Of a DNA stretch of 64,000 nt, positions 23,117-35,833 are shown piece by piece. How positions within the stretch are numbered: position 1 is the first letter of the stretch; the number at the start of each line of letters is the position of its first letter. The DNA lies in IMG/VR virus record IMGVR_UViG_3300025875_000005, positions 32,899 to 96,898 of that record, one strand, 5' to 3'. The DNA comes from a virus. The notes below the pieces were generated by a model that saw nothing but the letters and a program-made list of their open reading frames with translations, was not told where the DNA came from and did not search any database. The position numbers and the translations under genes were made by a program.

Positions 23117-24055
23117 TTAGAGCGCGATGCCAGTGGTCTTCACTGCCGCGAGGGTCTCTTCAACCTGAAGAGCAACGCGCGTGGTGAGGACAACGATGAA
23201 CTGGCGGCGGGTGATGTCCTTGTCGAACTCAAGGGTGATGTCGCGCTGGATTCCGAAGATCAGGTTCTTCGGGTTGGTGAAGAGAGCCGAGGCAGGGTCG
23301 ATCATCGCCGCGCCCTCAACCGTGGACCCGAAGACGCGCAGGGGAAGGTTACCCTGCACCATCGAGTCACCGAGGCTCGTCGCACGCTCGCCGTACTGGT
23401 CACGAAGCTCAGTCTCGTTATCAACCGAGACGAAGTGCTTCATGGCGTTACGGTCGCGGAGGTAGCGGTCGGGCATCGCCTTCACAGCCGCCTTCACGAG
23501 GTCCTTGGTGAAGACCGCGCCGCCAGCCGCAACCGCGTTGGAGACACAGAGCTTCAGCCAGCCGTTCATGGTCGCGAGGTAAGCGTCACCCGAAGCCGTG
23601 TCACCCTGGAGAGCAAGCTCCTCAAGGTCACGAGCCGCGCGCTGACCCAGGAGGTCAACAATCGTCGCGTGGATGCCACCGGCACCCTCCGTGGGCTTGC
23701 CGTCGATGCGCCCGCCCTCGATGTTGTCCTCAAGGACAGAGTACGGGATGCGAAGCTCAGCGATGAACTCCTTGGTGTTCAGCACGACCTGACCGAGGTC
23801 GGGCTTCACGCGGTCACCAGCCGAGAGCGCCGTGTCCTCAACTGCCGGACGAAGCACGCGCGAGCCGAAACCGATCTTGTTGATCTTCATCTCCGGGCCC
23901 GTCATGAAGACCGTGCGGACCTGGGGGATGATGGTCGGGGAGTCCATCAGGTTCTTGAGGAACCGGTTGGTCTGCTGGGGGTTGAGCTTGCCTGCCGTCG
24001 CGAGATCGGCAAGAGCCATGTCAGCCTTCTGGATGATTTCCTGATTAGAACTCAT
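23117..24055 (-). CDS. Major capsid protein (HK97 fold, XkdG-like)
   Basis: GKLNPQQTNRF..KIGFGSRVL..LEDNIE..TNPKNLIFG; follows protease and scaffold; strong codon bias. Confidence 0.9.
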   Translation of the reverse strand: MSSNQEIIQKADMALADLATAGKLNPQQTNRFLKNLMDSPTIIPQVRTVFMTGPEMKINKIGFGSRVLRPAVEDTALSAGDRVKPDLGQVVLNTKEFIAELRIPYSVLEDNIEGGRIDGKPTEGAGGIHATIVDLLGQRAARDLEELALQGDTASGDAYLATMNGWLKLCVSNAVAAGGAVFTKDLVKAAVKAMPDRYLRDRNAMKHFVSVDNETELRDQYGERATSLGDSMVQGNLPLRVFGSTVEGAAMIDPASALFTNPKNLIFGIQRDITLEFDKDITRRQFIVVLTTRVALQVEETLAAVKTTGIAL

Positions 24056-24114: not shown

Positions 24115-25461
24115 TTAGCTGTTCTTCTTGTTGCGAGCAACACGTGAGCCCATCAGAGCGCTGTCGTAATAGCCCGTTCCGAACTCGGAACCTTCATCTG
24201 CCTTAGAAACCGCGACCTTAGACGAAGGGTCCCCAATCGGTGCAGGAGCGATGACAGTGCTCTTGACCACCTTCTGGGTTGCATCCGCCTTCTGGACAGC
24301 CTCAGAGACCTGGGTCTTGAGGGTGCTGTTCTCGGTCACCAGGGCCTCAATCTTCTCTCCCTGGGACTTCTGGATGGTCGTGATCTCCGACATCTGACCG
24401 CTGAGCTTGGTGAGCATCTCCAGCACGGGGTCCGGGAGGGCCTCTTCCTTCTTCACAGGGGCCTTCTTCGCCTTCTCCTCATCCGTCTCTTCCTTCACGA
24501 ACGGGGGAGCCTTGCCCTCCTCAGCAACCGGGGCCTCAGTCGTAGGAGCAACCTCCTCCTTGGCCTTCTCCTCTTCCTTCTTCTTGGCTGCCTTCTCCAC
24601 GGACTCCGGGACAGGGGTCTCCGAGGTGATGGCCTCATGCACAGAGGGCGCAGGAGCGTCAGCGGGGGTCTCGACAACCACCACATCAGAGGTCGGGGCA
24701 GTCGCAACCACCTCAACAACCTTCTCTTCGGTCTTCTCAGTGTCGCTCATGACGGTCTCTTCCTTCTTGATGGTTTCGCAATTGGTTGCAGAGGGGGTTG
24801 CAGTCTTGTAAGCCATCTCCCCCAGCTGGGCATTGGCGTAGAATGCCTTGCCCGGGATAGAAGCAACAAGACCCATGACGTGGGCAGTAAAGTCCGCGAG
24901 GTGCCCTTCTGCTGCGAGCTTGGCCTCTTCGAAGGAGGTAGCCGCGTAGACGGACTGGTCAATCACAGAGCGAAGGGCGCTGGAAGCCGCGTAGAAGCCC
25001 TCGGTGTAAGCAGTCGCCCCGAGCTTCTCCGAGAAGGTAGAAAGCTTCTGGCTCCAGGGCTCGAAACCCTTCATGACCACCACCATCTGGTCAGACAGAC
25101 GAACGACGTGACCCTCTTCCGGGGCCTCGCCCTGAGCGAACATGACCGTACCGTCCGCGTTCTCCGTCATGGTATCGACCGAGAAGCCAGCCTTCTTGAT
25201 GACTTCCTTGACTGCATCCAAGTCCGCCGTCTTGTGGACGATAACCGCCCCAACCGAAGGGGCAGCGGGAGCCTCAGGTGCGGTGCTCTCGCCCTTGAGG
25301 ATCTTGGAGAGGAAGCTACGGGGGTTGGTCAAGTCAATCATAGGGGCTCCTTCAGCGGTTTTCTGGATGCGAAAAGGGATCTGGTTCGCAGAACGCGAGA
25401 CCAGGGACACAAAATGTGCCTGGGGATCAAGAAGCTTCTTCATCCGAACCTTGATCTTCAT
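24115..25461 (-). CDS. Scaffold / head assembly protein
   Basis: FVSLVSRSAN N-terminal motif, Glu/Ala/Pro-rich linker and coiled coil; immediately before the capsid gene. Confidence 0.65.
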   Translation of the reverse strand: MKIKVRMKKLLDPQAHFVSLVSRSANQIPFRIQKTAEGAPMIDLTNPRSFLSKILKGESTAPEAPAAPSVGAVIVHKTADLDAVKEVIKKAGFSVDTMTENADGTVMFAQGEAPEEGHVVRLSDQMVVVMKGFEPWSQKLSTFSEKLGATAYTEGFYAASSALRSVIDQSVYAATSFEEAKLAAEGHLADFTAHVMGLVASIPGKAFYANAQLGEMAYKTATPSATNCETIKKEETVMSDTEKTEEKVVEVVATAPTSDVVVVETPADAPAPSVHEAITSETPVPESVEKAAKKKEEEKAKEEVAPTTEAPVAEEGKAPPFVKEETDEEKAKKAPVKKEEALPDPVLEMLTKLSGQMSEITTIQKSQGEKIEALVTENSTLKTQVSEAVQKADATQKVVKSTVIAPAPIGDPSSKVAVSKADEGSEFGTGYYDSALMGSRVARNKKNS

Positions 25462-25506: not shown

Positions 25507-26133
25507 TCAACCTTCGGTGATGGAGAGGTTGTCCACGGAAGAGAAACGGTGTCTGTGGCCCTTGGCCACCTCTGTCACAGTGCCCGTCACGATGCGATGG
25601 TTGTGACCGTCCACGTAATCGGTCTGGCCTCCGAGGAACTTCCCGTCTTCTCCGAACTTGGCCGTGAAGACGTGGGAGTGACCCTGAACAATGGAGGTGG
25701 GGCCCGTAAGCTCATCCGGGATCTCAATCTCCACCTCTTGTTCTTGCTTGATGACCAGGGCCTCCACAGAGAAGCCGTTAAGCTCGCCCTTCTTCACCTT
25801 CTCCCAGAGGGCATCATCATCCACGTGGACGCCCACGACCCAGCTGCCTGGGATGAAGGTCGCGTCATCATCACGAGCGATGAAGCTCTCCACCACATGA
25901 ACGCCGGGGGTCAGGACGTTCTCATGCTGGGTATCCACTGAGGCAAGCTTCAACTCGCGCATGAAGTTGTAGGCCATCTTTCGAATGGCCTCGGCATCCA
26001 TGTACTCGCCATGCACATCCGGCTTGAGGGGGGAATACACCTCCCCGTAGACCATCCGCTGTTCTTCATCGGCCTTCTGGATTTTGACGGGTTCCATGTG
26101 AACAAGGGTACTTGACTTGTTCTGACCTGCCAA
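25507..26133 (-). CDS. XkdF-like prohead serine protease
   Basis: QRMVYGEVY.P..D.HGE..D.QH..VVESFIA..GSWV..W..VKKGELNGFS. Confidence 0.85.
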   Translation of the reverse strand: MAGQNKSSTLVHMEPVKIQKADEEQRMVYGEVYSPLKPDVHGEYMDAEAIRKMAYNFMRELKLASVDTQHENVLTPGVHVVESFIARDDDATFIPGSWVVGVHVDDDALWEKVKKGELNGFSVEALVIKQEQEVEIEIPDELTGPTSIVQGHSHVFTAKFGEDGKFLGGQTDYVDGHNHRIVTGTVTEVAKGHRHRFSSVDNLSITEG

Positions 26134-26139
26134 GTTGCC

Positions 26140-26172
26140 AAAAAGAAAGGGCCCGGTGATTAGCCGGACCCT
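26140..26172 (-). terminator. Intrinsic terminator closing the toxin/hydrolase cassette
   Basis: AGGGTCCGG-CTAATCA-CCGGGCCCT-TTCTTTTT on the minus strand. Confidence 0.7.
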
Positions 26173-26199
26173 CGGAACTCTGCAATCAGTTGCGCTGAC

Positions 26200-27132
26200 T
26201 TACACAGCCGCCACGTAGTCAATCACGGGCTGGATATCGACCACAGCCTTGAGGTCAGGGATATCAATGGGGAAAAGGTGGGCTGCAAGGCCTCCCGCCA
26301 TGGAACCCACGGTATCCGAGTCCCCCACGATGTGGATTGCATCCTTGGCCGCCTGCAACCAGGAGGTAGCCCCCATGACTGACCGGAGGGCAATCGCCAC
26401 TGCCTCCTCAGCTACCCATGCCTGAGCCTGCATCCGGGTCTGATAGAACTTGGCGTCGTTCTCCTTGGTGTGCTTGGTGAAGGCATCGATGTTGACGCCC
26501 TCAGCCACCATGCACATCCGCGCCCTCCCCATTGCCTCCTCCAGATTGGGGGAACGGGTGAGGAAGAAGTGCAGGAGAGACCAGTAGACCGACCCCTGCC
26601 AAGCAAAGTGATGGTCGTGGGTGAGTTGTGCGTCAATCACTGCCGTATCGATGACCCAGGCAGGGCCCATGTCCCAGACAGCCCCCAGGATACCGATGGG
26701 AGCGCATCGCATCACTGTGCCATTGCCCTTGGAGGTGTTCGTGGACCGCTTACCCTGACGGCAGATGGCCGCCATGGAGCCCATGCAGGTGTTACCCGGG
26801 GCCCGCCGCTGCCACATCTCATGGTACCCAAGGACACCCTCATCGTACATGGCGTTCGGGGTATTGGTCTGGGTCGTGTACCAGCGGCAGTACCCGCGAG
26901 AAATCTCCTGCCTCAGGGACTTCTTGTTCCCGCCGTCAGCCTTCCAGAGCTTCAGGCTTTCGGTGAGGAAGAGCATCATCTGGGTATCGTCGGAAGCGTG
27001 GGCCTCCGTGTCAGTCAGAACCCTCATCCAGGATTCAGCGGATGGGACGCCCCCGAACTCCAGGGGCTCTCCCAATGCATCTCCGTAAGCCGTGCCCATC
27101 AGAATCTGCTTCAGCACTCCATTGCCGTCCAT
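26200..27132 (-). CDS. ADP-ribosylglycohydrolase (DraG/ARH family)
   Basis: GDALG, SDDTQM, RAPGNTC, KGNGTVMR, AQLTH and GDSDTVGS motifs. Start reassigned to ATG 27132. Confidence 0.9.
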   Translation of the reverse strand: MDGNGVLKQILMGTAYGDALGEPLEFGGVPSAESWMRVLTDTEAHASDDTQMMLFLTESLKLWKADGGNKKSLRQEISRGYCRWYTTQTNTPNAMYDEGVLGYHEMWQRRAPGNTCMGSMAAICRQGKRSTNTSKGNGTVMRCAPIGILGAVWDMGPAWVIDTAVIDAQLTHDHHFAWQGSVYWSLLHFFLTRSPNLEEAMGRARMCMVAEGVNIDAFTKHTKENDAKFYQTRMQAQAWVAEEAVAIALRSVMGATSWLQAAKDAIHIVGDSDTVGSMAGGLAAHLFPIDIPDLKAVVDIQPVIDYVAAV

Positions 27133-27137
27133 CTGAG

Positions 27138-27395
27138 TTACTTTCTGAGGCCGTCCAGGCGCTCTTGAGGGGTTACTTCCTTGGGGACTGCCTCGTACTG
27201 GATACCGTGGTCGCCCTCTACGGGCTCCATGTGCTTGTTCTCCCCATCCAAGATGGCCTCGGGGATTCGGTCCGTAAAGGCATTGCACTGGCTGAGGGAC
27301 GCCCACCTGTGGACGCACGTCTGGCAGCTGCTCTTGAGGATGGTCGCCGCCTCCCCCACAAACTTCGATTCATCGTCGTGATTTTGATCGAACAT
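27138..27395 (-). CDS. Small acidic Cys-containing protein (candidate immunity protein)
   Basis: CxxCxH..CxAF..IP..I..G...H..P..GD.GIQYE; own promoter at 27413-27442. Confidence 0.7.
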   Translation of the reverse strand: MFDQNHDDESKFVGEAATILKSSCQTCVHRWASLSQCNAFTDRIPEAILDGENKHMEPVEGDHGIQYEAVPKEVTPQERLDGLRK

Positions 27396-27438
27396 GGCCA
27401 ATCCTTAAGAGAAGTCCTACCCCAACTACATTAGTTTG

Positions 27439-28272
27439 TCAAATCAAATCTACGCTCATGATGTGCCGGGTGTAGGTCCCGCTACCCTCGTGGCGGTAAC
27501 CCGTGATCTTGTAGCGGGAGTTACGGGGCAGGAGAAGCTCAGACTCGGAGGAGTGATGGGTCCGCTCCTTGTCCTGACCAAGGTAGGCCCCCTTCGCTCC
27601 CTTCTTGACGTTGATCTCCAGCATCACACGCCCCTGCTTCATGAAGCCCCCAGCAACCTCCTTGTCGATGGAGGTAGAGCCGTAGGACTTATCCTTGAAC
27701 TCGGTCCCGACCAGCTTCTCGAAGAAGTCAGGCTTGGCCACATCATACTTGTCGAGTCCCCACACCCGCTGGGTCATGGCCCGGTAGGCAACCACGTTGT
27801 CAGGGACTTCCATCTTGTCCAGGGCCTTGTCCAGGGCCTTAACAGAGGCATCCATGCCCTTCTTGGTATGGGGCTGTTGAATCTTCTCGTAGGTAGGGGT
27901 GGGATTCACATGCTCGTTGAGCCGCTTGGAGAAGGAACCCGTGTACGTAACGATATCCCGACGCTCCTTGGGGGTAAGGCTGTCCCACTGCTTCTGGGTA
28001 GCATCCCGCATGAGGGTATCGCCCACCCCGAGACTGGTCTCGACCGTGGTGCCGTAGACATCGTACTTCTTGTACGGGGGTGGCTCATGGGCCTTCTTGT
28101 AGGCCTCAGATGCCTTTACCTCTGCGAGGTACTCAGCCTTGTCTCGGTCATTGAGCTTCTTGAACTTGCCCCCCCACGAAACTGAATGGGCACCCGGCTT
28201 ACTGGTAAACCGGCCATTCTTGTCGTGGTAGGGGTTAAGCTTCAGGATCTTCGCGTATTCGGGAGGGGACAC
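27439..28272 (-). CDS. ADP-ribosyltransferase (VIP2/C3-like R-S-E class) with NPYH leader
   Basis: VVAYR, YGSTS and ESELLLPRNS catalytic motifs. Start proposed at GTG 28272 behind GAGG. Confidence 0.88.
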   Translation of the reverse strand: MSPPEYAKILKLNPYHDKNGRFTSKPGAHSVSWGGKFKKLNDRDKAEYLAEVKASEAYKKAHEPPPYKKYDVYGTTVETSLGVGDTLMRDATQKQWDSLTPKERRDIVTYTGSFSKRLNEHVNPTPTYEKIQQPHTKKGMDASVKALDKALDKMEVPDNVVAYRAMTQRVWGLDKYDVAKPDFFEKLVGTEFKDKSYGSTSIDKEVAGGFMKQGRVMLEINVKKGAKGAYLGQDKERTHHSSESELLLPRNSRYKITGYRHEGSGTYTRHIMSVDLI

Positions 28273-28336
28273 AGGCAACCTCGAAAGGGACGTGTCCCCT
28301 GACTTTACGGGGCTCTGCAACTGAGTGCAATTCGAC

Positions 28337-28525
28337 TCAAGCCTTACTCTTCAACCACTCCGCATAGCCCTTCTTCATCGTCGGGTCATTCGGAAAGGCC
28401 TCTTCTGGCTTCAGCTTCAGGTTGTGCGCGTCGTGGTACTCGGTCTCCGGGGGCAGCTTGCCAAGCTTGTCCCATTCGGGTTCGTTCTCCCACGCTTCGG
28501 GAGGAAACCCCTTCTTCGTAGTCAT
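28337..28525 (-). CDS. Small protein (candidate antitoxin of the zeta kinase)
   Basis: 62 aa, GAGGTG RBS, own promoter at 28561-28590. Confidence 0.6.
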   Translation of the reverse strand: MTTKKGFPPEAWENEPEWDKLGKLPPETEYHDAHNLKLKPEEAFPNDPTMKKGYAEWLKSKA

Positions 28526-28593
28526 AACCCACCTCTTTCTATCCCCTCAGGGACAACTACAATTTACCCCAAACTACCCTAGTTTGTCAAGGA

Positions 28594-29568
28594 TTACTTC
28601 TTCTTGGAGCGCTGGATAAGGACTGGAGAGGCCCCGGAGTTGTCGTAAGCAGACCACTTACTGAAGAGGGGCTTCATCTTGTCGAAGTTGGCCTCGTTGT
28701 TCTTGTTGCCCAGAACCACATCCACGGGAACCAAGCGACCACGCTTGCCCTCACGACCAAGGTAGCGACCCACAGCGCGCTTTGCAGCCTCCTGACGGGG
28801 CAGGTGCATGTAGTGACCCTGAACGTCGTAGCCCTTGGCAGAGAACTGCTTGATGGTCCCAATCATTGAGTCGGACCGGAGGGTGCCGTCAATGACCACG
28901 TTGAGCTTGCGGCGCATCGCCATGGCCTGCACCCGGTCAAGGATGTAGCTGGACTCCTGATGGACCTGAGCGGCATTCCAGCCCTGATACGGGGGGCGAA
29001 GGAGGCCCTTGATGTGGTCAGAGTCCAGGACCATGTGCTTGTCCCCGTCGAACTCCTTGATCTTTCCGTTGGTGAAGGAGGACTTGCCGGAACCACCCCG
29101 ACCACCCAGGACCACCATGGAGGGCTTCTCTCCAGGGGCAGGGGTCGCCTTCTTCACGTCATCCACGTTGAAGATGGAGGCAAGGATCTTGTCATGCAGC
29201 GCCATGCGCTCTGCCGTGTAGACGGTCTCTGCCGGACCTTCCTTGGTGTAGAGCTTGTCGGACCCGTCGAGACCATTGGTCTCCTTGATCTTGTCCGCAA
29301 TCTCCTTGCGCTCTGCCTCGGAGAACTTGGAGAGGATGGAGTCAGGGGTGACGTTTGGGTCATCCTTGCTCTTGGCGTAGTCAGCAAGGCTCCCCTTATG
29401 AGGCCCCTCCACGTCCCCGTCATGGCTTCCACCGGTACCACCACTCCCTGCTGAGTCCCCGCCCCCACGACCATTGGCAGGGGCAAACTTGCCGTCCTTG
29501 GCGTGGTAGGGGTTGAACTTGGTGACAACCTCGGCACCCTTCAGAATCTTGGAGTAGTTCTTGGTCAC
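28594..29568 (-). CDS. Zeta-toxin family P-loop kinase with NPYH leader
   Basis: LGGRGGSGKS, LDSDHIK, VHQESS, NVVIDGT, A..R...R and W.AYDNSG motifs. Confidence 0.85.
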   Translation of the reverse strand: MTKNYSKILKGAEVVTKFNPYHAKDGKFAPANGRGGGDSAGSGGTGGSHDGDVEGPHKGSLADYAKSKDDPNVTPDSILSKFSEAERKEIADKIKETNGLDGSDKLYTKEGPAETVYTAERMALHDKILASIFNVDDVKKATPAPGEKPSMVVLGGRGGSGKSSFTNGKIKEFDGDKHMVLDSDHIKGLLRPPYQGWNAAQVHQESSYILDRVQAMAMRRKLNVVIDGTLRSDSMIGTIKQFSAKGYDVQGHYMHLPRQEAAKRAVGRYLGREGKRGRLVPVDVVLGNKNNEANFDKMKPLFSKWSAYDNSGASPVLIQRSKKK

Positions 29569-29593
29569 GTTAGCCTCTGCAATTGGTTGCGCT

Positions 29594-29776
29594 CTACTTG
29601 GAGCGGGGCATCCCAGGATACAGAGAGTACACCTCTTCCAGGGTCATATTGAAGCTCTTGAGGAGGAGGTTCTTCACCTCTTCTCGTAGCTCTTTGGAGA
29701 CTGGGCCCTTGAAGATGGTGTCCAGGGCTTGGGAAGCGTCCCCATCCTCTACCCGCGTGTTCTTGATTGGCTTCAT
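29594..29776 (-). CDS. Small protein translationally coupled to MuF
   Basis: ATGA overlap with the MuF stop; MKPIKNTRVEDG..., 60 aa. Confidence 0.6.
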   Translation of the reverse strand: MKPIKNTRVEDGDASQALDTIFKGPVSKELREEVKNLLLKSFNMTLEEVYSLYPGMPRSK

Positions 29777-31365
29777 GGGAATGCCGCGAAGAAGACTTCC
29801 ATGACTGCTGCATCCTCGATATCCAGAAGCATTTGGATGCTCCACTTGGCCAGTAGTTGGTCGCCATATGGCAAGAACGCGAGGGCATAGATGCCCTTGG
29901 GGTTGTTCATGTCCAGGATGGCGTTGAGGTTCTGCTGTTCAGTCGGGTCAGAGGGCCAGTGCTTCGCAAGCTCCCCACCCTCCTTCAGAGCTTCCTCGAT
30001 GTTCGTCTGGATCTTGATCCACTCCTCCTGATTGGCAGGGACAAAGCCCATCTTGGCGTAGTTGTAGACGCCTGAGCGACCACCCGCCTTGACCACGTAG
30101 GAGTCAGCCTCAAGGAGCTTCGCAAGCTCCACACTCCTCTTCAGGTGCCCTTCCAGAAATCCGGTAGTAGCTCCCGGGCTTGCTCCAATCTCCAGGTAGT
30201 TTCCGTAAAGGGTCTTGCTGAAGTTGTCGTAGACCACCTGCATCTCGACCTGTGAAGTCGGTCCCGCGAGGGGGCCGCTCACCTTGAGCTTGATGGTGTC
30301 CTCATCCCCAATGCCCACCCTCATCTCAAAGGGGGCCTTGGGCTTGATCAAGTCATCGGGAGAGAGGCCCGTGAGCTTGGAGGCAACGGCTGCCGGGGGC
30401 TGGCCAATGGTGCTGTTCCAGAGGTCCAGTTGCTTGGGCGTGATGTTGACCCCGATGGCATCGAACTCCTTGGGGGTCTGGGGCGTCAGGACCCTCTGCT
30501 GCTCCATCTCCTTGCGGGGCTCCCCGATGACCTTCCGACCAGCCACGGCACAGAGCGTCCTGCACAAGGGATGAAAGGGAGGGATGTGGTAGCCCAGTGC
30601 GGTCAAGTCAGCGGCAGACATCTCCCGGAGGGACTTGATGGTCTTGGCGTCCTGCTTGGGCCATGGATGGAGGTTCTTCACGGTCTCAGCATCCTGAGCC
30701 TGGAGAATCCTGTTGATGCTTGAGCGGGCGTCCTCCACCTCGAAGGTCTTCCCATGGGCCACGTAGCGGCAGTAGTGGGAGGTTCGTCCATCCAGGACAG
30801 CCGTGAGTCGGTACTGGGTGACTCCACGGACATCTGCCTCAGCCGTGAAGCCCCACACAGCCAGTCGGGAGCTATGGAGGCTGGAAATCAGCTGGAGGCG
30901 AGCATCTGCATCGCTCTTGAATGACACGAACTCCTTCACGTATCGCTGGCCTTGGTAGAACGTGTCAGCCTTCTTGACCATCTCGGGGTACTGACGGGCT
31001 GCAATCAGTTGCGCCAGGGAGGTATAGGCTGCCTGGAAGGCTGAGACTTCCACATCCCTGAGAAGGGCATCCGCTGCCTGTCCCAGGAGAATCTCGTAGC
31101 TCCCCGTCTCCAGGGCTGTGTCCTTGGCCACCATCTGGGCCCCGAACTTGGCCGCCGCAAATAGCTGGTACTTCAGCCAGTCGTAATGGTTCTCCCGGAT
31201 GACCGAGAAATCCAGCTGGCCCGCGAAGTCGTAGGCAGCGGCATAGTCAGAGTCCTCCATCGCATCAGTGACCTGAGAGAACACCTGTGCTGCCAAGGGG
31301 CCCCATGCCTTCTGGAGCCTCTTGGTCAGGGCCATCTCAATCTTCAGGTAAGCCCGGGGGTCCAT
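29773..31365 (-). CDS. Minor head protein (MuF / SPP1 gp7 family) with C-terminal extension
   Basis: AVLDGRTSHYC and IPPFHPLCRT MuF motifs; directly after the portal gene. Confidence 0.8.
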   Translation of the reverse strand: MDPRAYLKIEMALTKRLQKAWGPLAAQVFSQVTDAMEDSDYAAAYDFAGQLDFSVIRENHYDWLKYQLFAAAKFGAQMVAKDTALETGSYEILLGQAADALLRDVEVSAFQAAYTSLAQLIAARQYPEMVKKADTFYQGQRYVKEFVSFKSDADARLQLISSLHSSRLAVWGFTAEADVRGVTQYRLTAVLDGRTSHYCRYVAHGKTFEVEDARSSINRILQAQDAETVKNLHPWPKQDAKTIKSLREMSAADLTALGYHIPPFHPLCRTLCAVAGRKVIGEPRKEMEQQRVLTPQTPKEFDAIGVNITPKQLDLWNSTIGQPPAAVASKLTGLSPDDLIKPKAPFEMRVGIGDEDTIKLKVSGPLAGPTSQVEMQVVYDNFSKTLYGNYLEIGASPGATTGFLEGHLKRSVELAKLLEADSYVVKAGGRSGVYNYAKMGFVPANQEEWIKIQTNIEEALKEGGELAKHWPSDPTEQQNLNAILDMNNPKGIYALAFLPYGDQLLAKWSIQMLLDIEDAAVMEVFFAAFP

Positions 31366-33102
31366 TTACTCGGTCTCAGTTTCCGGGGCGTTGGCGTGGT
31401 TGATGAGAAGGGTCGTAACGAAGGCCTTATCGTCCACGCTAAGCTCATCCACCTGCTTACGGATGGTCTCCCGGTCTGCCTCGGAGAAGTCGAACTTGGA
31501 GGGGATGAGACCCTCTGCCCGACCCCACTCCTGAGCGAGAGCCGCCATCTTCTGGACCTTCTTGGCAGGCTTCTCAGGGGCAATGGACCCAGCGGTCTTG
31601 GCCTTGGGGGCAACCACAGGAGCCGCCTTGGGCTTGGGCACCCCAGGAGCACCCGGAACACCAGGAGCCGCACCAGGAACCGGCATCCCAGGCTGGGGAG
31701 CGTCCTTGTTCTCCTCCAGCACCAGACCCGTAATGGTGTTCATCTCCTTGATGAAGGACTCCTTGGTCGTCACGTCCTTCGAAAGCTCAAGGCCCTTCAT
31801 CTGAGTCTCAACGTCCTTGAGGGTGATGGGCTTTGACTTGAACTTGCACGTCTTGGCCCCCAGAGCCTTCATAACGGTCCGGTTGAAGATCTCGTCGAAC
31901 TCGGTTCGCTCGGGGCCGAAGACCTGAGCCTCAGCAACCATGTACGAGGTCTTGGCGGATGCGAAGTTGTAGTCTTCAGAGCGACCGATGAAGAGCGGGG
32001 GCAGCCGGAAGCCCACTCGAACATGGTCCTCCGTGGACTTGTCGTAGTTGGCGAACATGGCGTCGTTGGCCTTCTCCGCGCCGAACCGCTCCACGGTGAT
32101 CTTCACCCCTGCGTCCTTGTCGATAGACCCGCCTGAAGACTGGGCCTCCACAATGGCTGCACGGTACTTGTTCTTGGCCTGACCAGAGAGGTACATCCGG
32201 AGGTCATTCGCCACGTCCTTGGCCAGCGTACCACCCTGGATGAAGATGATTGCCGGGGGCATACCACCAGCGTCCAGGAAGGAGAGATTCTCCTCCTCTG
32301 CCTTGCGGGAGCCGAGAACGGACGGCAATTGGTTAATCCAGCGAGGCAGCCCATAGGGGCTGTTCAGATCCTTCTTCACCCGGAAGGCCAGAAGCTCCGT
32401 CGCTCGCACGTTGGGGTCAAGCGGGTTCTCCTCAGACTCCCACTCGCCCGTGTCCCGGTGAAGGTGACGGCTGACCCCGAACTCCCGGTAGTAGATGTAC
32501 CGGTTGGAGCCCGCTGACTGGACAAAGCGCCGTTCACGCTCCTGGACCTTGATCTTCACGTCCTTGCCGTTGCGGGAGACCGTCTTCTCCACGTCGAGAG
32601 GGGCATCCAGTCGGACCATGCGGACGCCCGTGGCAGGCATGTGCCTCAGACCCATCAAGTCCCCCTCTGCATTGCGGAGGACTTCCATGTATCCGGTACC
32701 AGAATTCTCCGAGTCGTTCCGGATGTCCGTGCGGATGGAGATAAGGGACTTGCCGGGGTAGGGCTCGTTGAGAAAGCTGAGGAGGTTCTTCTCCTCTGTC
32801 TTGTCGTGGTCCTTGCCATCCTCCACAGAGATAAGCTCATGGCCCGTGCCGTCGATGTTGACCACCATCGCCTCAATGCACTGGCTGAGGATGTTGTTCA
32901 CGGAAGAGAGTCCGGCCAGCACCTTCAAAGGGAAGGGAGGCTCCAGGACTGCCTTTGACGAATCCTTGACCCCAGCGGTGTAGCCCTTGAACTCATCCTC
33001 AGGCTCAAACTGAGAAGAAGCGAGCACCATATAGGTGTCTCCCTTCAGGACCCGCTGAACATAATGGATCGCGCTAGTGGGTTCTTCCTTCTTCTCAGCC
33101 AT
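31366..33102 (-). CDS. Portal protein (PBSX XkdE-like)
   Basis: GYMEVLRN, YGLPRW, FRLPPLFIG..DYNFASA motifs. Confidence 0.9.
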   Translation of the reverse strand: MAEKKEEPTSAIHYVQRVLKGDTYMVLASSQFEPEDEFKGYTAGVKDSSKAVLEPPFPLKVLAGLSSVNNILSQCIEAMVVNIDGTGHELISVEDGKDHDKTEEKNLLSFLNEPYPGKSLISIRTDIRNDSENSGTGYMEVLRNAEGDLMGLRHMPATGVRMVRLDAPLDVEKTVSRNGKDVKIKVQERERRFVQSAGSNRYIYYREFGVSRHLHRDTGEWESEENPLDPNVRATELLAFRVKKDLNSPYGLPRWINQLPSVLGSRKAEEENLSFLDAGGMPPAIIFIQGGTLAKDVANDLRMYLSGQAKNKYRAAIVEAQSSGGSIDKDAGVKITVERFGAEKANDAMFANYDKSTEDHVRVGFRLPPLFIGRSEDYNFASAKTSYMVAEAQVFGPERTEFDEIFNRTVMKALGAKTCKFKSKPITLKDVETQMKGLELSKDVTTKESFIKEMNTITGLVLEENKDAPQPGMPVPGAAPGVPGAPGVPKPKAAPVVAPKAKTAGSIAPEKPAKKVQKMAALAQEWGRAEGLIPSKFDFSEADRETIRKQVDELSVDDKAFVTTLLINHANAPETETE

Positions 33103-33451: not shown

Positions 33452-35833
33452 CTAAGTGACCTTCTTCTCCATCGCCTTGAACTTCTTGAGGTCATAGAGA
33501 TCCCCCATGTTTTTGCCTACCTTCGTATCGGCAATGAACTTCAATTGGGGCTTCCAACCGAGCTTTTCGAAGGGCAGGTTCTCCATGATTTCCTGCTTGC
33601 GGATGGCGTGCTTCTCCCAGTTATCCTCAGGGAGGTACGAATAGCCTGCGTCATGGATGGCAGCGAAGGCTGGGGCCTCCTTGAATCCGCCCTGCTGATG
33701 CTCCAGAGCGAAAGCCCAAATCATCATGTCAGAGAGGGTTGCCTGGACCGGGGAGTTGATAGCCTTGCGTTCTTCCCCGTTCTTGATGCCCCCGTTCTTG
33801 GAGTTGATGAGGGGCAGGTGACGAATCCGACCGAGAGGGGAACGGACGAATCCATGCTTGTGGGCAAAGGCCTTGGTCGTGTTGTGGTAGGTGACCAGAC
33901 CCGGATACGTCTTGAAGAACTTCTCTCGAATCTCCGTGGCCTGAGCGAGGGTAAGCTCCACTCCGTAGTTATTAGCCGCGTACACCTGGAAGCCTTCAGG
34001 GAACTGACCATAGAGGAGACCGAAGTTGGCAGGCTTCCCAGGCTGACGAATGGCATCGTAGCGGTCAGGGTCGGTCTCCTTGAGGGCAATCACTTCATCG
34101 TAGGTCATGCCCACGATCCCAGACCCGGTGAGGACGTGGAGGTCTTTCTTCTCCCGGTACGCCTGAATCATGGTCGCTTCATCTGCGATGCACGCCACTA
34201 CCCGAAGCTCCCCCTGGGAGTAGTCCTGCTCAGCCATCAGCCACCCTGGGGGGGTGTTGAAGATTCTCCGGATGCGCTTGCCCCAGATGGTGTGCTTGGG
34301 GACCGTCTGGATGGCGGGGGAGTTGGCTGAGAGTCTCCCGGTCACCGTGCCCCCCTTCTCATCCTTCTCCCGCTTGTTGGCAGCATGGAGGAAGTAGGAG
34401 GGGTGGAACTTCCCGTCTGACCGGATGTGCTCCTTGAAGCCTGTCACATAGGTGGAGAGGGTCTTGGTCGCTGAGCCGTAGCGGTCAAGGAGGTCTACGA
34501 AGGGCTTGGCCTCGGGAACGTCCTTGAACATGAGCATGTGCTCAAGGGTGCTGGATGGCTCCCCGGACTTCTCCGTGAACATCTTGGGCTTCAGACCCAG
34601 ACCCGTGTTGGAGAACATGAAGTCAAAGAGGAGGGAGGCCTTCTTGAGGTTGATGCCTCCCACCACCTCGGGGTTCATGTGCTTGGCATAGAGACGCCCG
34701 CCAATCACGCCCTTTGCCTCCTTCACCAGGGCCTCAATCTCTTTGTTGAGGTCGAACTCAAGCTGGTTGTAGGCCTCCATGTCGATGAAGATGCCCCCGC
34801 GCTCGATAACCTCGAAGGCACGTGCGGAGGGGTGCAAGACGTGGACGTAGAAGTCGGTGAGCTTCTTGTCCTTGAGAAGGAGCTTCTTCATCTCCTCAGA
34901 GACCTGAAGACAGGCATCCGTGTCTCCTCCCGCGTACTCAAGGAGGTCTTGGTCCTTGGGCAGGAGGTCCATGCGAGACTTGTCAATCCTTGCGTCGAAT
35001 TCATCCGAGTATCCACCGATACAGCTGTGAATCTTCGCGTGAACGTCAAGCCCGTTGGAGCGATTCTCGTCCAGACAGGACCCCAGGAGGGTCGTATCGA
35101 CCTTGAAATTGGTGCATTCAAGATTGCGGGTGTGAAACCAGTGCCAGAGAAGGTCAAACTTCCCGTTGGCCATTCTCATGGAGATCTTATCAGTGGTCAT
35201 GAGCCACTTGATTTGGTCGTAGAGCCCAGCGTTCAGGGCCTGCCGGTAGTCCTCCATGGATGAGAAGTAGCGGACGGCTGAGTATCCCGGCTTGTGACTG
35301 AACTGCCACGTCACGAACCGCTTGGTCGGGTCCACAGGGTCAAGGCCCACGGTCTCCGTGTCATGGGAACACGCTACAGGCTTACCAGTCAGGGCGTACT
35401 GGGCTTCAATCTCAGCGATGACCTTGGAGAAGTCCTCCACATACTCGTAGTGCCCCAGGATGGGCTTGTACTTGCCCGTGATGGCCACTCGGAGGGCTGA
35501 GCGAGCATCACACAGGAGGTCAACGTACATCTGGTAGTTCACAGCCAGGATGCCGGGGCTGTAGGAGAGAAGGTACTGGGCATCCCCTACCGGGATGGCC
35601 TTGTTCCTCAGGGAGGTCAGGGTTCTGTTCTTGGGGACCACCTTGAGGCTCTTGAGGAAGGCCAGACCCTCATCCCCCAGACAGAGAACCGTGTTGCCGG
35701 GGGGCAGCTGAGTGAAGTCGTTGACCACATCAATCCTGCAATCAGTTGCGCCCCCGATGGCCACCCCCAGGGCGTCAAGTATCTTGGACCGGTGATCCTT
35801 GCTCCAGATTGTCAGATTCAAAGAGGCTCCCAC
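33452..35833 (-). CDS. polA: DNA polymerase family A with 3'-5' exonuclease and a degenerate UDG-like N-terminus
   Basis: Exonuclease DTET / NGKFD / YAGGD; polymerase TGRLS, DYSQGELR, RQPGKPANFGLLYG, NSPVQ, IHD. Confidence 0.95.
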   Translation of the reverse strand: MGASLNLTIWSKDHRSKILDALGVAIGGATDCRIDVVNDFTQLPPGNTVLCLGDEGLAFLKSLKVVPKNRTLTSLRNKAIPVGDAQYLLSYSPGILAVNYQMYVDLLCDARSALRVAITGKYKPILGHYEYVEDFSKVIAEIEAQYALTGKPVACSHDTETVGLDPVDPTKRFVTWQFSHKPGYSAVRYFSSMEDYRQALNAGLYDQIKWLMTTDKISMRMANGKFDLLWHWFHTRNLECTNFKVDTTLLGSCLDENRSNGLDVHAKIHSCIGGYSDEFDARIDKSRMDLLPKDQDLLEYAGGDTDACLQVSEEMKKLLLKDKKLTDFYVHVLHPSARAFEVIERGGIFIDMEAYNQLEFDLNKEIEALVKEAKGVIGGRLYAKHMNPEVVGGINLKKASLLFDFMFSNTGLGLKPKMFTEKSGEPSSTLEHMLMFKDVPEAKPFVDLLDRYGSATKTLSTYVTGFKEHIRSDGKFHPSYFLHAANKREKDEKGGTVTGRLSANSPAIQTVPKHTIWGKRIRRIFNTPPGWLMAEQDYSQGELRVVACIADEATMIQAYREKKDLHVLTGSGIVGMTYDEVIALKETDPDRYDAIRQPGKPANFGLLYGQFPEGFQVYAANNYGVELTLAQATEIREKFFKTYPGLVTYHNTTKAFAHKHGFVRSPLGRIRHLPLINSKNGGIKNGEERKAINSPVQATLSDMMIWAFALEHQQGGFKEAPAFAAIHDAGYSYLPEDNWEKHAIRKQEIMENLPFEKLGWKPQLKFIADTKVGKNMGDLYDLKKFKAMEKKVT

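Follow-up and report, generated by a model that had tools for sequence, protein, structure and literature searches.

A junction motif shared by a zeta-type kinase and an ADP-ribosyltransferase in the head module of an uncultured phage

In the head module of a complete genome of an uncultured phage (96.9 kb), a zeta-type kinase and an R-STS-ExE ADP-ribosyltransferase (ART), encoded between a MuF-like gene and the gene of an XkdF-type prohead protease, open with copies of one short motif, [VI]-x-K-[FAY]-NPYHD-xx-GRF followed by a Gly/Ser/Thr/Ala linker. The same motif was found in hundreds of phage and prophage contigs: at stand-alone N-termini, between domains of giant polyvalent proteins, and straight after portal, MuF and protease domains. 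It is apparently a widespread, undescribed junction motif; judging by gene context and analogy, it probably marks capsid-carried proteins that are injected along with DNA. All genes described for the cassette by the first-pass annotation were present, on the minus strand, in the window (the whole 64 000-nt stretch analyzed, whose coordinates are used below):

31366..33102, minus: portal protein, 578 aa, the upstream anchor of the head module (ORF)
29773..31365, minus: MuF-like minor head protein, 530 aa (PHROG minor-head-protein matches)
29594..29776, minus: s60, 60 aa, its ATG overlapping the stop codon of the MuF-like gene (ATGA)
28594..29568, minus: Zeta/PezT/AvrRxo1-type P-loop kinase, 324 aa (Zeta_toxin PF06414, E = 4.8e-23)
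29485..29556, minus: kinase leader with junction motif, YSKILKGAEVVTKFNPYHAKDGKF, residues 5-28, fitting the class logo
28561..28590, minus: promoter-like element before s62, TTGACAAACTAGGGTAGTT...TAAATT
28337..28525, minus: s62, 62 aa, acidic, Pro/Glu/Trp-rich, after the kinase (strong RBS AAGAGG)
28264..28300, minus: stem-loop over the GTG start of the ART, with RBS GAGG in the loop (RNAfold)
27439..28272, minus: C3/VIP2-type ART, 277 aa (ADPrib_exo_Tox PF03496, E = 2.3e-29)
28207..28257, minus: ART leader with junction motif, YAKILKLNPYHDKNGRF, residues 6-22
27424..27442, minus: second copy of the promoter-like element, before s85 and the hydrolase, TTGACAAACTAATGTAGTT
27138..27395, minus: s85, 85 aa, acidic, Cys-rich, conserved, C-x2-C-x-H ... 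C-x-AF-x-D-x-IP
26200..27132, minus: ADP-ribosylglycohydrolase (ARH) of the DraG/ARH family, 310 aa (ADP_ribosyl_GH PF03747, E = 1.6e-34)
26147..26173, minus: terminator-like stem-loop at the cassette end, before the protease gene
25507..26133, minus: XkdF-type prohead serine protease, 208 aa (PF14550, E = 5.1e-27; phrog_15223, E = 1.8e-74)
24115..25461, minus: scaffold-like protein, 448 aa, containing FLSKILKG near residue 50

The portal protein was grouped by local jackhmmer with portal ORFs of 61 motif-bearing loci, and it is syntenic with the portals of two distant relatives, L013 and L032. The next gene codes for a protein with DGRT..C and PPFHP.CR motifs that is 27% identical to its L013 homologue over the full length (E = 1e-56). 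These motifs, the PHROG matches, the position after the portal gene and a match to TIGR01641 (SPP1-gp7; E = 1.9e-5, under the cut-off of that model) agree with the name MuF given to it at first pass; however, the protein should be called MuF-like only, as Pfam PF04233 gave no match even at E ≤ 1. It contains neither the junction motif nor a recognisable toxin domain. No integrase was found in this phage, thus there was no sign of lysogeny.

The refined gene model places the kinase start at GTG 29568 (RBS AGAGG). The Walker A (GGRGGSGKS), DSD and DGTLR motifs were aligned to those of zeta (1gvn) and PezT (2p5t); the NCBIfam matches to PezT and to AvrRxo1/XopAJ were equally weak, and the zeta module of a polyprotein of L013 is 38% identical. 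The epsilon/zeta and PezA/PezT systems have the same kinase domain, with Walker A, catalytic Asp motif and GT-R motif; unlike in these systems, the kinase gene is here part of the late operon of a phage, its product is tagged at the N-terminus, and no epsilon- or PezA-like antitoxin was recognised for it.

The ART most likely starts at GTG 28272 (RBS GAGG, 277 aa) rather than at TTG 28320; the stem-loop over this start has a 10-bp stem (−18.5 kcal/mol for a 71-nt stretch, RNAfold). The triad R / S-T-S / E-x-E was in register with VIP2 in the alignment (YR, STS, ESE), while only a weak PHROG match (1.6e-4) linked the protein to Alt-like ARTs. The AF2 model has pLDDT of ∼90 or more for residues 35-277 and low confidence (49-55) for residues 1-30; the leader, with a single isolated strand bridge from residue 16 to 22, is predicted to be flexible. 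K11, N13, P14, H16, G20 and F22 of the leader are invariant across 35 stand-alone ART relatives, as are S199 and E245 of the catalytic domain.

With the starts of both genes refined, both proteins open with M-x3-4-Y-[SA]-K-I-L-K, and the common leader, Y-[SA]-K-I-L-K...K-[FL]-N-P-Y-H-x-K-x-G-[RK]-F, is situated 4-5 residues past the start codon in both. The two enzymes can be aligned over the leader only (16/40 identical, E = 4e-4 for the pair), in agreement with the earlier observation of near-identical leaders on unrelated enzymes. A pairwise alignment as short as this could be a meaningless chance or low-complexity match. Yet six-frame translation, whether of the window or of the entire 97-kb genome, turned up the leader motif exactly twice, each time at the N-terminus encoded by one of two adjacent effector genes; the kinase leader fits the logo of the whole class, [VI]-x-K-F-NP-Y-H-x-x-x-G-[RK]-F; and the same extended motif recurs in hundreds of phage loci. 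A strict DNA pattern of the motif was matched in at least 119 IMG/VR loci and in 96 genome loci, with ∼2 and ∼17 expected by chance, respectively, by our own estimate. Residues not specified by the pattern were conserved as well (K at −2 in 134/171, V/I at −4, T/A/S at +10); these flanks back 113/119 IMG/VR loci, among the matches listed, and 75/94 genome loci. Such wide occurrence and flank conservation, along with presence of the motif in 60 of the 150 best ART relatives, refute chance resemblance, whose probability we consider negligible.

Among 175 unique copies of the motif, 71 were N-terminal leaders, located within 70 residues of the start codon and often 1-10 residues away from it, and 88 were internal; a single protein may have up to 7-8 copies. 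Pfam families upstream of the first copy (45 segments scanned) were portal (16: 12 PF04860, 2 PF06381, 2 PF06074), MuF (10) and XkdF protease (6); by local jackhmmer, homology of the motif-bearing ORF itself to portal proteins was seen in 44 loci, and to XkdF in 18. The cargo included ART families, zeta, glutamine deamidase, topoisomerase IB, 2H and several DUFs, most cargo segments being without a Pfam family; the leader is thus portable, as had been proposed, since the same motif sits on unrelated domains. It also occurs without fusion to MuF, in line with the first reading: among the 150 best ART relatives, 34 stand alone and have the motif at the N-terminus. The kinase and the ART have no Cys and are basic (pI 9.5 and 9.4), the opposite of the ARH, s85 and the MuF-like protein, which contain Cys and are acidic; the small proteins of the cassette do not share this composition of the two enzymes either. 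Class-wide, 56% of cargo segments were Cys-free versus 16% of control ORFs (p = 4e-19), and the median pI was 8.7 versus 5.55 (p = 8e-9), though some of the control ORFs may be spurious.

The motif was found to be covered by no publication, by no model of Pfam or NCBIfam and by no chain in the PDB; no description of it emerged from term searches in the main text of PMC5512222 and PMC9503650 or from full-text literature searches for the motif string. Among cultured phages it was detected by tblastn, an insensitive test, in 2 of 50 697 records.

On balance, we lean towards regarding the cassette as a split form of the head-carried effector load of many tailed phages. The motif would allow entry of a cargo module into the procapsid, its processing inside, or both. 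Kinase and ART would be packaged along with the genome and reach the next host at injection; in that host, proteins would be modified on arginine by the ART, and a nucleotide-sugar or NAD-type compound would be phosphorylated by the kinase. Staying behind in the producer, the ARH, which lacks the tag, would limit self-damage while the toxins build up, perhaps together with s85, s62 or s60.

Cargo-loading peptides of encapsulins are short conserved peptides with a flexible linker which dock unrelated enzymes inside an HK97-fold shell; they are usually C-terminal, and no ejection is involved. The analogy with the junction motif is functional only; the sequences are unrelated and docking of the motif is hypothetical. 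Closer parallels come from phages. ARTs and zeta kinases encoded among head genes or fused to MuF were predicted to be head-packaged (PMC5512222, PMC9503650). As in polyvalent proteins and head effector fusions (Iyer, Burroughs, Anand, de Souza, Aravind 2017; Iyer et al. 2022), the effectors are found here among head genes; the published effectors, which lie among head genes or are fused to MuF, portal or capsid-processing protease, are predicted to be packed and injected (PMC5512222, PMC9503650). Here they are encoded separately, and every one has a motif copy to itself. T4 Alt is a head-carried, injected ART, and T4 internal proteins are directed to the prohead by a short N-terminal peptide trimmed by the prohead protease (PMC5512222). 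An ART and a short N-terminal peptide are common to T4 and our phage, with head carriage here predicted from gene context; the leader is unrelated in sequence, the protease is XkdF and not gp21, and, unlike the T4 targeting sequence, the motif is also internal and spread across many phage lineages.

One could argue that the motif is mainly a processing or release site and not a loading signal, which we consider rather unlikely. Cleavage at the site, whether by the prohead protease or autocatalytic (e.g. Asn cyclisation at the invariant Asn-Pro), would free cargo from portal, MuF and protease anchors and from other cargo; on stand-alone enzymes the motif would mark the junction of a short propeptide or be left over from gene fission, and loading would depend on the Y-[SA]-K-I-L-K half, on basic charge or on MuF. 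The motif is indeed present at every anchor-cargo and cargo-cargo junction, and portal-fused cargo needs release to exit the capsid. Such a site fits the junction positions equally well as a capsid-targeting/ejection signal does, and at fusion junctions it fits better than targeting, a role needless for cargo that a head protein already carries. In viruses of both bacteria and archaea, the N, P, H, G and F of the motif are invariant, which is more readily accounted for by intrinsic chemistry or by a universal partner than by a docking surface that co-evolves. Also, the first half of the leader is seen alone at extreme N-termini (MYAKILK..., MFASILK...) and, followed by a linker, in the scaffold-like family, where FLSKILKG resembles this half and a hydrophobic-x-x-[IV]-[FL]-K element is kept in 5/8 aligned homologues. 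On the other hand, with 71 of 175 unique copies near the start codon, cutting there would remove almost nothing, and motif-bearing loci encode prohead proteases of at least two families (XkdF and HK97-type S78), making a single protease specificity unlikely. A portal with the motif at its end and no cargo (L041/L143) is simply explained by neither targeting nor release.

In the two relatives, zeta and ART are parts of one polyprotein, a true polyvalent protein like those of the published class, so that split and fused forms occur in the lineage of this phage. Both have the order polA-portal-MuF-small ORF-X-s85-ARH-XkdF, where X comprises zeta, a middle module (HExxH or ParB-like), a helical region and ART, with one copy of the motif before zeta and one on each side of the middle module. 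The HExxH module, present in L013, is of the kind proposed as the processing peptidase of polyvalent proteins (Iyer et al. 2017, PMC5512222), in favor of a release site. The middle module was exchanged exactly between two motif copies, homology stopping at the motifs: modules are swapped at motif boundaries, and the system is modular, as the first-pass annotation had it.

Motif-bounded exchange would also be expected if the shared leader were a conserved recombination joint and linker moving cassettes among head-module genes. The enzymes would then not be virion cargo; they would be toxin-antidote modules acting in the producing or lysogenised cell (takeover, superinfection exclusion, addiction) or, as a variant, leave the cell at lysis in the manner of polymorphic toxins of the MuF type. 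The order toxin, small ORF, hydrolase, like that of MuF polymorphic toxins, and the small genes' own promoter-like elements point the same way. We find this improbable: a DNA joint does not explain a motif kept as protein, with invariant residues, over very different hosts and base compositions; class-wide Cys scarcity and basic charge suggest a common physical route; and the genes are within the late head operon, from the MuF-like gene to the protease, of a phage with no sign of lysogeny.

In the MuF toxin systems Bxa/BAH and Apk2/Aph1 (PMC5576092; PMC11699363) the toxin is likewise located in the head module just past portal and MuF, and the genes after an ART are a small ORF and an ADP-ribosylhydrolase, both neutralising it; we see the same order, with immunity inferred. 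Here, in contrast, there is no MuF fusion, the MuF-like protein has no PF04233 domain, and two different toxins are in tandem; besides, MuF toxins were described in temperate phages, whereas no integrase was found here. Small ORFs are general after MuF toxins (Jamet et al. 2017, PMC5576092; PMC11699363), and for Bxa, a MuF-ART fusion, experiments showed that the ARH encoded next to it and a small protein neutralise the toxin (PMC11699363).

The ARH starts at ATG 27132 (310 aa), not at 27318; its translation contains GDALG and GDSDT motifs and weakly matches the DraG equivalog. As it is untagged, acidic (pI 5.6) and has 5 Cys, and given the Bxa/BAH parallel, producer-cell immunity against the ART is a more likely role than that of a co-injected eraser, so the injected writer/eraser pair proposed earlier is disfavored. 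The immunity role becomes less compelling if the phage is lytic, since late toxicity may then hardly matter.

The small genes were located after each enzyme as first reported, and s60, s62 and s85 all show the coding GC1/GC2/GC3 signature. The idea that each toxin has its own antidote fared less well, as s85 is not confined to ARTs and no informative homologues turned up for s60 or s62. The order ART-s85-ARH is kept in L013 and L032, but s85 homologues, whose Atlas clusters are unnamed viral proteins, were also seen after portal (L041), a MuF-like gene (L204) and an unknown motif-bearing protein (L119). s62, with no homologue in any library or among 215 fetched loci, is a candidate antidote. 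s60, without a family match in Pfam, PHROG or NCBIfam profile searches, is a possible zeta antidote; its positional counterparts in L013 (7685-7861) and L032 (9854-10027) have the same ATGA overlap and a similar C-terminus.

Genome-wide, the promoter-like element is present four times, always on the minus strand. Both copies outside the cassette are ahead of non-structural genes; s62 and the s85-ARH pair are each behind an element that also precedes non-structural genes.

The zeta-type kinase and the ADP-ribosyltransferase (ART) lie in the head module of a virus whose record is complete (96,898 bp with direct terminal repeats, CheckV completeness 100%); a search of this record for a tyrosine integrase found none. 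The module, in which the small genes s60, s62 and s85 are named by protein length, is composed as follows:

33452-35833, minus strand: DNA polymerase I
31366-33102, minus strand: portal
29773-31365, minus strand: MuF-like protein
29594-29776, minus strand: s60, small gene, 60 aa
28594-29568, minus strand: zeta-type kinase
28337-28525, minus strand: s62, small gene, 62 aa
27439-28272, minus strand: ADP-ribosyltransferase (ART)
27138-27395, minus strand: s85, small gene, 85 aa
26200-27132, minus strand: ADP-ribosylglycohydrolase (ARH)
26147-26173, minus strand: terminator-like hairpin
25507-26133, minus strand: XkdF-type prohead protease
24115-25461, minus strand: scaffold-like protein
23117-24055, minus strand: major capsid protein

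The starts of the kinase (GTG at 29568, with AGAGG upstream) and of the ARH (ATG at 27132) were refined from the DNA; for the ART, nucleotide context makes GTG 28272, preceded by GAGG, the most likely start and disfavours an upstream TTG. The refined starts give the enzyme N-termini MTKNYSKILKGAEVVTKFNPYHAKDGKF and MSPPEYAKILKLNPYHDKNGRF. In their GC1/GC2/GC3 pattern the three small genes agree with the large ones. We also saw a stem-loop at 28264-28300 of the window (minus strand; 10-bp stem, -18.5 kcal/mol in a 71-nt fold) that pairs across the likely ART start and leaves the GAGG ribosome-binding site in the loop; it may control translation of the toxin.

The kinase matched PF06414 (E = 4.8e-23), and its segments GGRGGSGKS (Walker A), LDSDH (D-x-D) and DGTLR (G-T-x-R) are in register with zeta (1gvn) and PezT (2p5t); all three motifs of zeta/PezT kinases (P-loop GxxGxGKS/T, D-x-D, E/D-G-T-x-R) are present. 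No epsilon/PezA-type antitoxin was recognisable near it, the upstream s60 and downstream s62 matching no family. In the ART, aYR, gSTSi and sESEl are in register with VIP2 and supply the Arg, S-T-S and E-x-E (arginine-specific form) of C3/VIP2-type R-S-E ARTs (PF03496); S199 and E245 are invariant across 35 aligned relatives. The match of the ARH to PF03747 is full-length (E = 1.6e-34, profile positions 2-276 of 287), with DraG/ARH metal-site motifs near the N-terminus (YGDALGEP, for GDAxG) and the C-terminus (VGDSDTVG, for GDxDT).

In tblastn of both enzymes against phage records, only distant ART or zeta domains were found (Gordonia and Mycobacterium phages, haloviruses, cyanophage PSS2), with the leader unmatched; megablast of the region matched none of 50,697 phage records. 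A homologous-protein search with the ART as query returned the ART itself only, and a related-locus search with the MuF-like protein found no relative. The latter gene had been called MuF in the first-pass annotation. PF04233 was unmatched even at E <= 1, and 'MuF-like' is used here given a sub-threshold SPP1-gp7 match, PHROG minor-head families and the position after the portal. The name is also backed by 27% full-length identity to its counterpart in L013 (with L032, one of two syntenic relatives among motif-bearing IMG/VR loci); no toxin domain was found in the protein.

The same annotation had described near-identical leaders on the two enzymes, and this observation held: kinase and ART are unrelated outside the leader, whose motif has exactly two copies in the six-frame translation of the whole genome. 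We call it the junction motif (JM); the core tested was [VI]-x-K-[FAY]-N-P-[YF]-H-D-x-x-G-[RK]-F, then a Gly/Ser/Thr/Ala-rich linker. The ART carries it as ILKLNPYHDKNGRFTSKPGA and the kinase, in which A replaces D and K replaces R, as VTKFNPYHAKDGKFAPANGRGGGDSAGSGG, at residues 6-22 and 5-28, respectively, of genes situated between the MuF-like gene and the protease. Leader residues K11, N13, P14, H16, G20 and F22 are invariant in the 35 aligned stand-alone ART relatives. AlphaFold2, run with this 35-relative alignment, gave pLDDT of ~90 or more for the ART domain and 49-55 for residues 1-30, in which an isolated strand bridge (16-22) was the only predicted structure; this difference suggests that the leader behaves as a flexible tag, outside the enzyme.

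A back-translated DNA pattern for NPYHDxxGRF, run on IMG/VR and on species-representative genomes, was found in at least 119 and in 96 loci, respectively; by our own chance estimate, ~2 and ~17 matches were expected. Positions outside the pattern are conserved too: among the matches listed there is Lys at -2 (134 of 171 copies), Phe/Ala/Tyr at -1, Val/Ile at -4 and Thr/Ala/Ser at +10, then a Gly/Ala/Ser/Thr-rich stretch. Such flanks back 113 of the 119 viral loci listed and, in the genomes, 75 of 94. The genome records name hosts from Alphaproteobacteria, Clostridia, Verrucomicrobiota, Chloroflexota, Bacteroidota and Actinomycetota, with two archaea in addition; JM-bearing prophages of this set include ones in Novosphingobium, Azospirillum, Mixta and Corynebacterium isolates.

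Among the matches listed, 71 of 175 unique JM copies are within 70 residues of a start codon and 88 are internal; single ORFs of ~2,600-2,800 aa have seven copies about one domain apart, and the median cargo length is 256 aa. The cargo is varied (ART families, zeta kinases, glutamine deamidase, topoisomerase IB, 2H phosphoesterase, DUFs), with about three quarters of JM-led segments having no Pfam family. In longer ORFs the part ahead of the first JM mostly belongs to a head-internal protein: among 45 such upstream segments there were 16 Pfam matches to portal families, 10 to MuF and 6 to XkdF protease, and by local jackhmmer the JM ORF itself is a portal homologue in 44 of the loci listed and an XkdF homologue in 18. 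In one case, a PF06381 portal (L041:1738-3204, the same protein in L143) ends ...NFNPYHDARGRFASAPGED followed by the stop, i.e. it has a JM without cargo; an s85-like Cys-rich small gene comes directly after.

HMMER with the ART over 1.84 billion representatives produced 1,471 matches; the best 150 of these include 34 stand-alone proteins of 240-350 aa whose starts closely resemble that of the window ART (MYAKILKYNPYHD, MFARILKANPYHD, MEFAKILKANPYHD) and 20 giants with multiple JMs. A natural 35-aa leader gave two weak tblastn matches in cultured phages, a scarcity that is taken as reflecting an insensitive method and not true absence. Six ART relatives (P0004, P0019, P0072, P0093, P0104, P0128) were seen to lack NPYHD, often having related strings instead (NDNHDELGRF, EQPRDDHGRW, DQPRDSAGMW, HPRDSHGRF); these strings suggest a motif superfamily broader than the strict pattern.

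Head-module ARTs and zeta kinases, MuF toxins with immunity genes, polyvalent proteins and N-terminal capsid targeting peptides are already known. The JM appears undescribed. A full-text literature search for NPYHD and variants found no relevant paper, and main-text term searches of the MuF-toxin, polyvalent-protein, NAD-ADPr and Bxa papers turned up no mention of the JM. Any one Pfam family had matches in at most 13 of 150 JM-led segments, hence no Pfam model covers the motif; NCBIfam had no match on the leader of the window proteins, and a JM profile searched against the whole PDB had no match at E <= 10.

Phage-delivered effectors decide the first minutes of infection via host takeover and counter-defence; to our knowledge, entry of stand-alone effectors into the capsid is understood for few models only, such as the T4 capsid targeting sequence. 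We put forward tentatively, at somewhat less than an even chance, that the JM is a general, transferable element of tailed viruses of bacteria and archaea which by itself directs or releases a protein for delivery with the DNA. The attached protein would be sent into the procapsid, or freed there by self-cleavage at the invariant Asn-Pro, and cassettes of tag, linker, effector and sometimes immunity gene would be shuffled among stand-alone genes, polyvalent proteins and portal, MuF or protease fusions. If so, the JM, common to hundreds of unrelated cargo domains in bacterial and archaeal viruses, would provide a sequence rule predicting the injected proteome of uncultured phages, an explanation for the exchange of effector cassettes and, for laboratory systems, a simple handle to load chosen proteins into phage particles. 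As a case of the JM, the window is clean and minimal: two cargo enzymes with the tag, and candidate antidotes without it, in a complete genome.

Loading and processing are compatible roles. That the JM may be a loading signal is favoured by the many copies located a few residues past the start codon and followed by a long flexible linker. It may as well be a processing or release site: every junction of anchor and cargo carries a JM, and N, P, H, G and F hardly vary among very distant viruses, which points to processing or intrinsic chemistry. In a small sample, JM loci have proteases of the XkdF type or of the HK97 type (S78), the latter in loci devoid of XkdF, which argues against cleavage specific to one protease. 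A cleavage site for XkdF only was considered and is weakened, as XkdF was found in 48 of the 199 loci, a small set of short sequences.

The first half of the leader, aromatic-x-x-I-L-K, also stands by itself at extreme N-termini, and is found again at about residue 50 of a scaffold-like family, ahead of a linker; it may be a separate sub-signal. In the scaffold-like protein of the window, FLSKILKG followed by an Ala/Pro-rich linker is seen at about residue 50 and resembles this first half; homologues have L/I-x-x-[IV]-F-K at the equivalent site, after a conserved F-[IV]-SLV-x-RGANRIPF N-terminus. The site could serve processing, or be a shared sub-signal.

Relatives in which the effectors are fused bear on the modular system that the first reading of the sequence had proposed. 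In L013 and L032 the gene order is polA, portal, MuF-like gene, small ORF, polyprotein gene, s85, ARH and XkdF protease, with a single polyprotein built as JM'-zeta-JM-middle module-JM''-helical region-ART:

L013, 7861-11859: polyprotein, 1333 aa
L032, 6648-9857: polyprotein, 1070 aa

The two polyproteins are 52% identical through the first NPYHD copy, that copy included, and homology resumes ~25 residues before JM'', which has an insertion (NPYHEPAGSPKGGQF). The stretch between the homologous parts is an HExxH module (256 aa) in L013 and a ParB-like DGRHR module (120 aa) in L032. The window kinase is 38% identical to the zeta module of L013; for the ARTs identity is ~24%, and the best local match is the JM itself. 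Thus, the same effector set exists fused and, in the window, split, with modules replaced between JMs, as expected of a modular system; this swap bounded by JMs is a contribution of the present analysis. Phage polyvalent proteins (Iyer et al. 2017) have at least two effector domains per polypeptide, as do the L013 and L032 proteins, whereas the window genes encode one domain each. The N-terminal JM' was seen to be a Q-x-R-D..G-[RK]-W variant (FDVNQRRDKRGRW in L013), so that both motif variants occur in one protein.

Comparative work in two papers (PMC5512222, PMC9503650) already infers packing and injection for ART and zeta-kinase effectors, whether joined to MuF, portal or capsid protease or encoded among head genes. 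We observed a class-wide cargo signature: 56% of JM cargo segments are Cys-free versus 16% of control ORFs (p = 4e-19), and the median pI is 8.7 versus 5.55 (p = 8e-9), the controls being the remaining same-strand ORFs of JM loci, possibly with a few spurious ones. Both tagged window enzymes have no Cys and pI 9.4-9.5; by comparison, the untagged antidote candidates ARH and s85 have five Cys and pI 5.6, and three Cys and pI 4.9, respectively. The MuF-like protein contains Cys and is acidic. Cys-free basic cargo would fit proteins lying with DNA and crossing the tail.

A small gene does follow each toxin, as had been noted at first reading: s62 behind the kinase and s85 behind the ART, the latter with the ARH as well. 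As for the proposed writer/eraser pair, the ARH has no tag and is therefore read as producer immunity, more likely than as an injected eraser. As described in PMC11699363, Bxa, a MuF-ART fusion, was shown experimentally to be neutralised by an adjacent ARH and a small inhibitor; the window, like L013 and L032, matches this ART-small ORF-ARH order of genes. In Jamet et al. 2017 (PMC5576092), MuF polymorphic toxins have a small ORF (<150 aa) after the toxin, as the window toxins do in s62 and s85; there, however, the toxin is C-terminal to MuF (PF04233, PF06152, MuF3, MuF4), while the window toxins are separate genes. The toxins of that study are encoded by temperate phages or prophages; the search of the present record covered tyrosine integrases and found none.

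The s85 gene is real; it has the conserved pattern C-x2-C-x-H...C-x-AFPDGIP (...H), probably that of a metal-binding family, with homologues at L013:11859-12146, L032:6363-6635, L119:6321-6545 and L204:4939-5154. Its Atlas neighbours are unnamed viral proteins. It is also found after the bare-JM portal (L041/L143), a MuF-like gene (L204) and an uncharacterised JM protein (L119); as these head-module contexts are without ART, the idea of s85 as an ART-specific immunity protein is weakened. For s60 and s62 jackhmmer detected no homologues in 215 loci; inspection by eye alone placed positional counterparts of s60 right behind the MuF-like gene of L013 and L032.

A promoter-like element, TTGACAAACTA..GTAGTT, has four copies in the genome, all on the minus strand. 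Two are right after the toxin stops (28561-28590 and 27424-27442 of the window, minus strand), before s62 and s85-ARH. The other two (genome 27245-27263 and 20484-20502, outside the window) are ~60 nt upstream of non-structural genes, which suggests that the antidote candidates could be transcribed outside the late operon too. One of these non-structural genes carries a C-P-I-C-E-G zinc-type motif.
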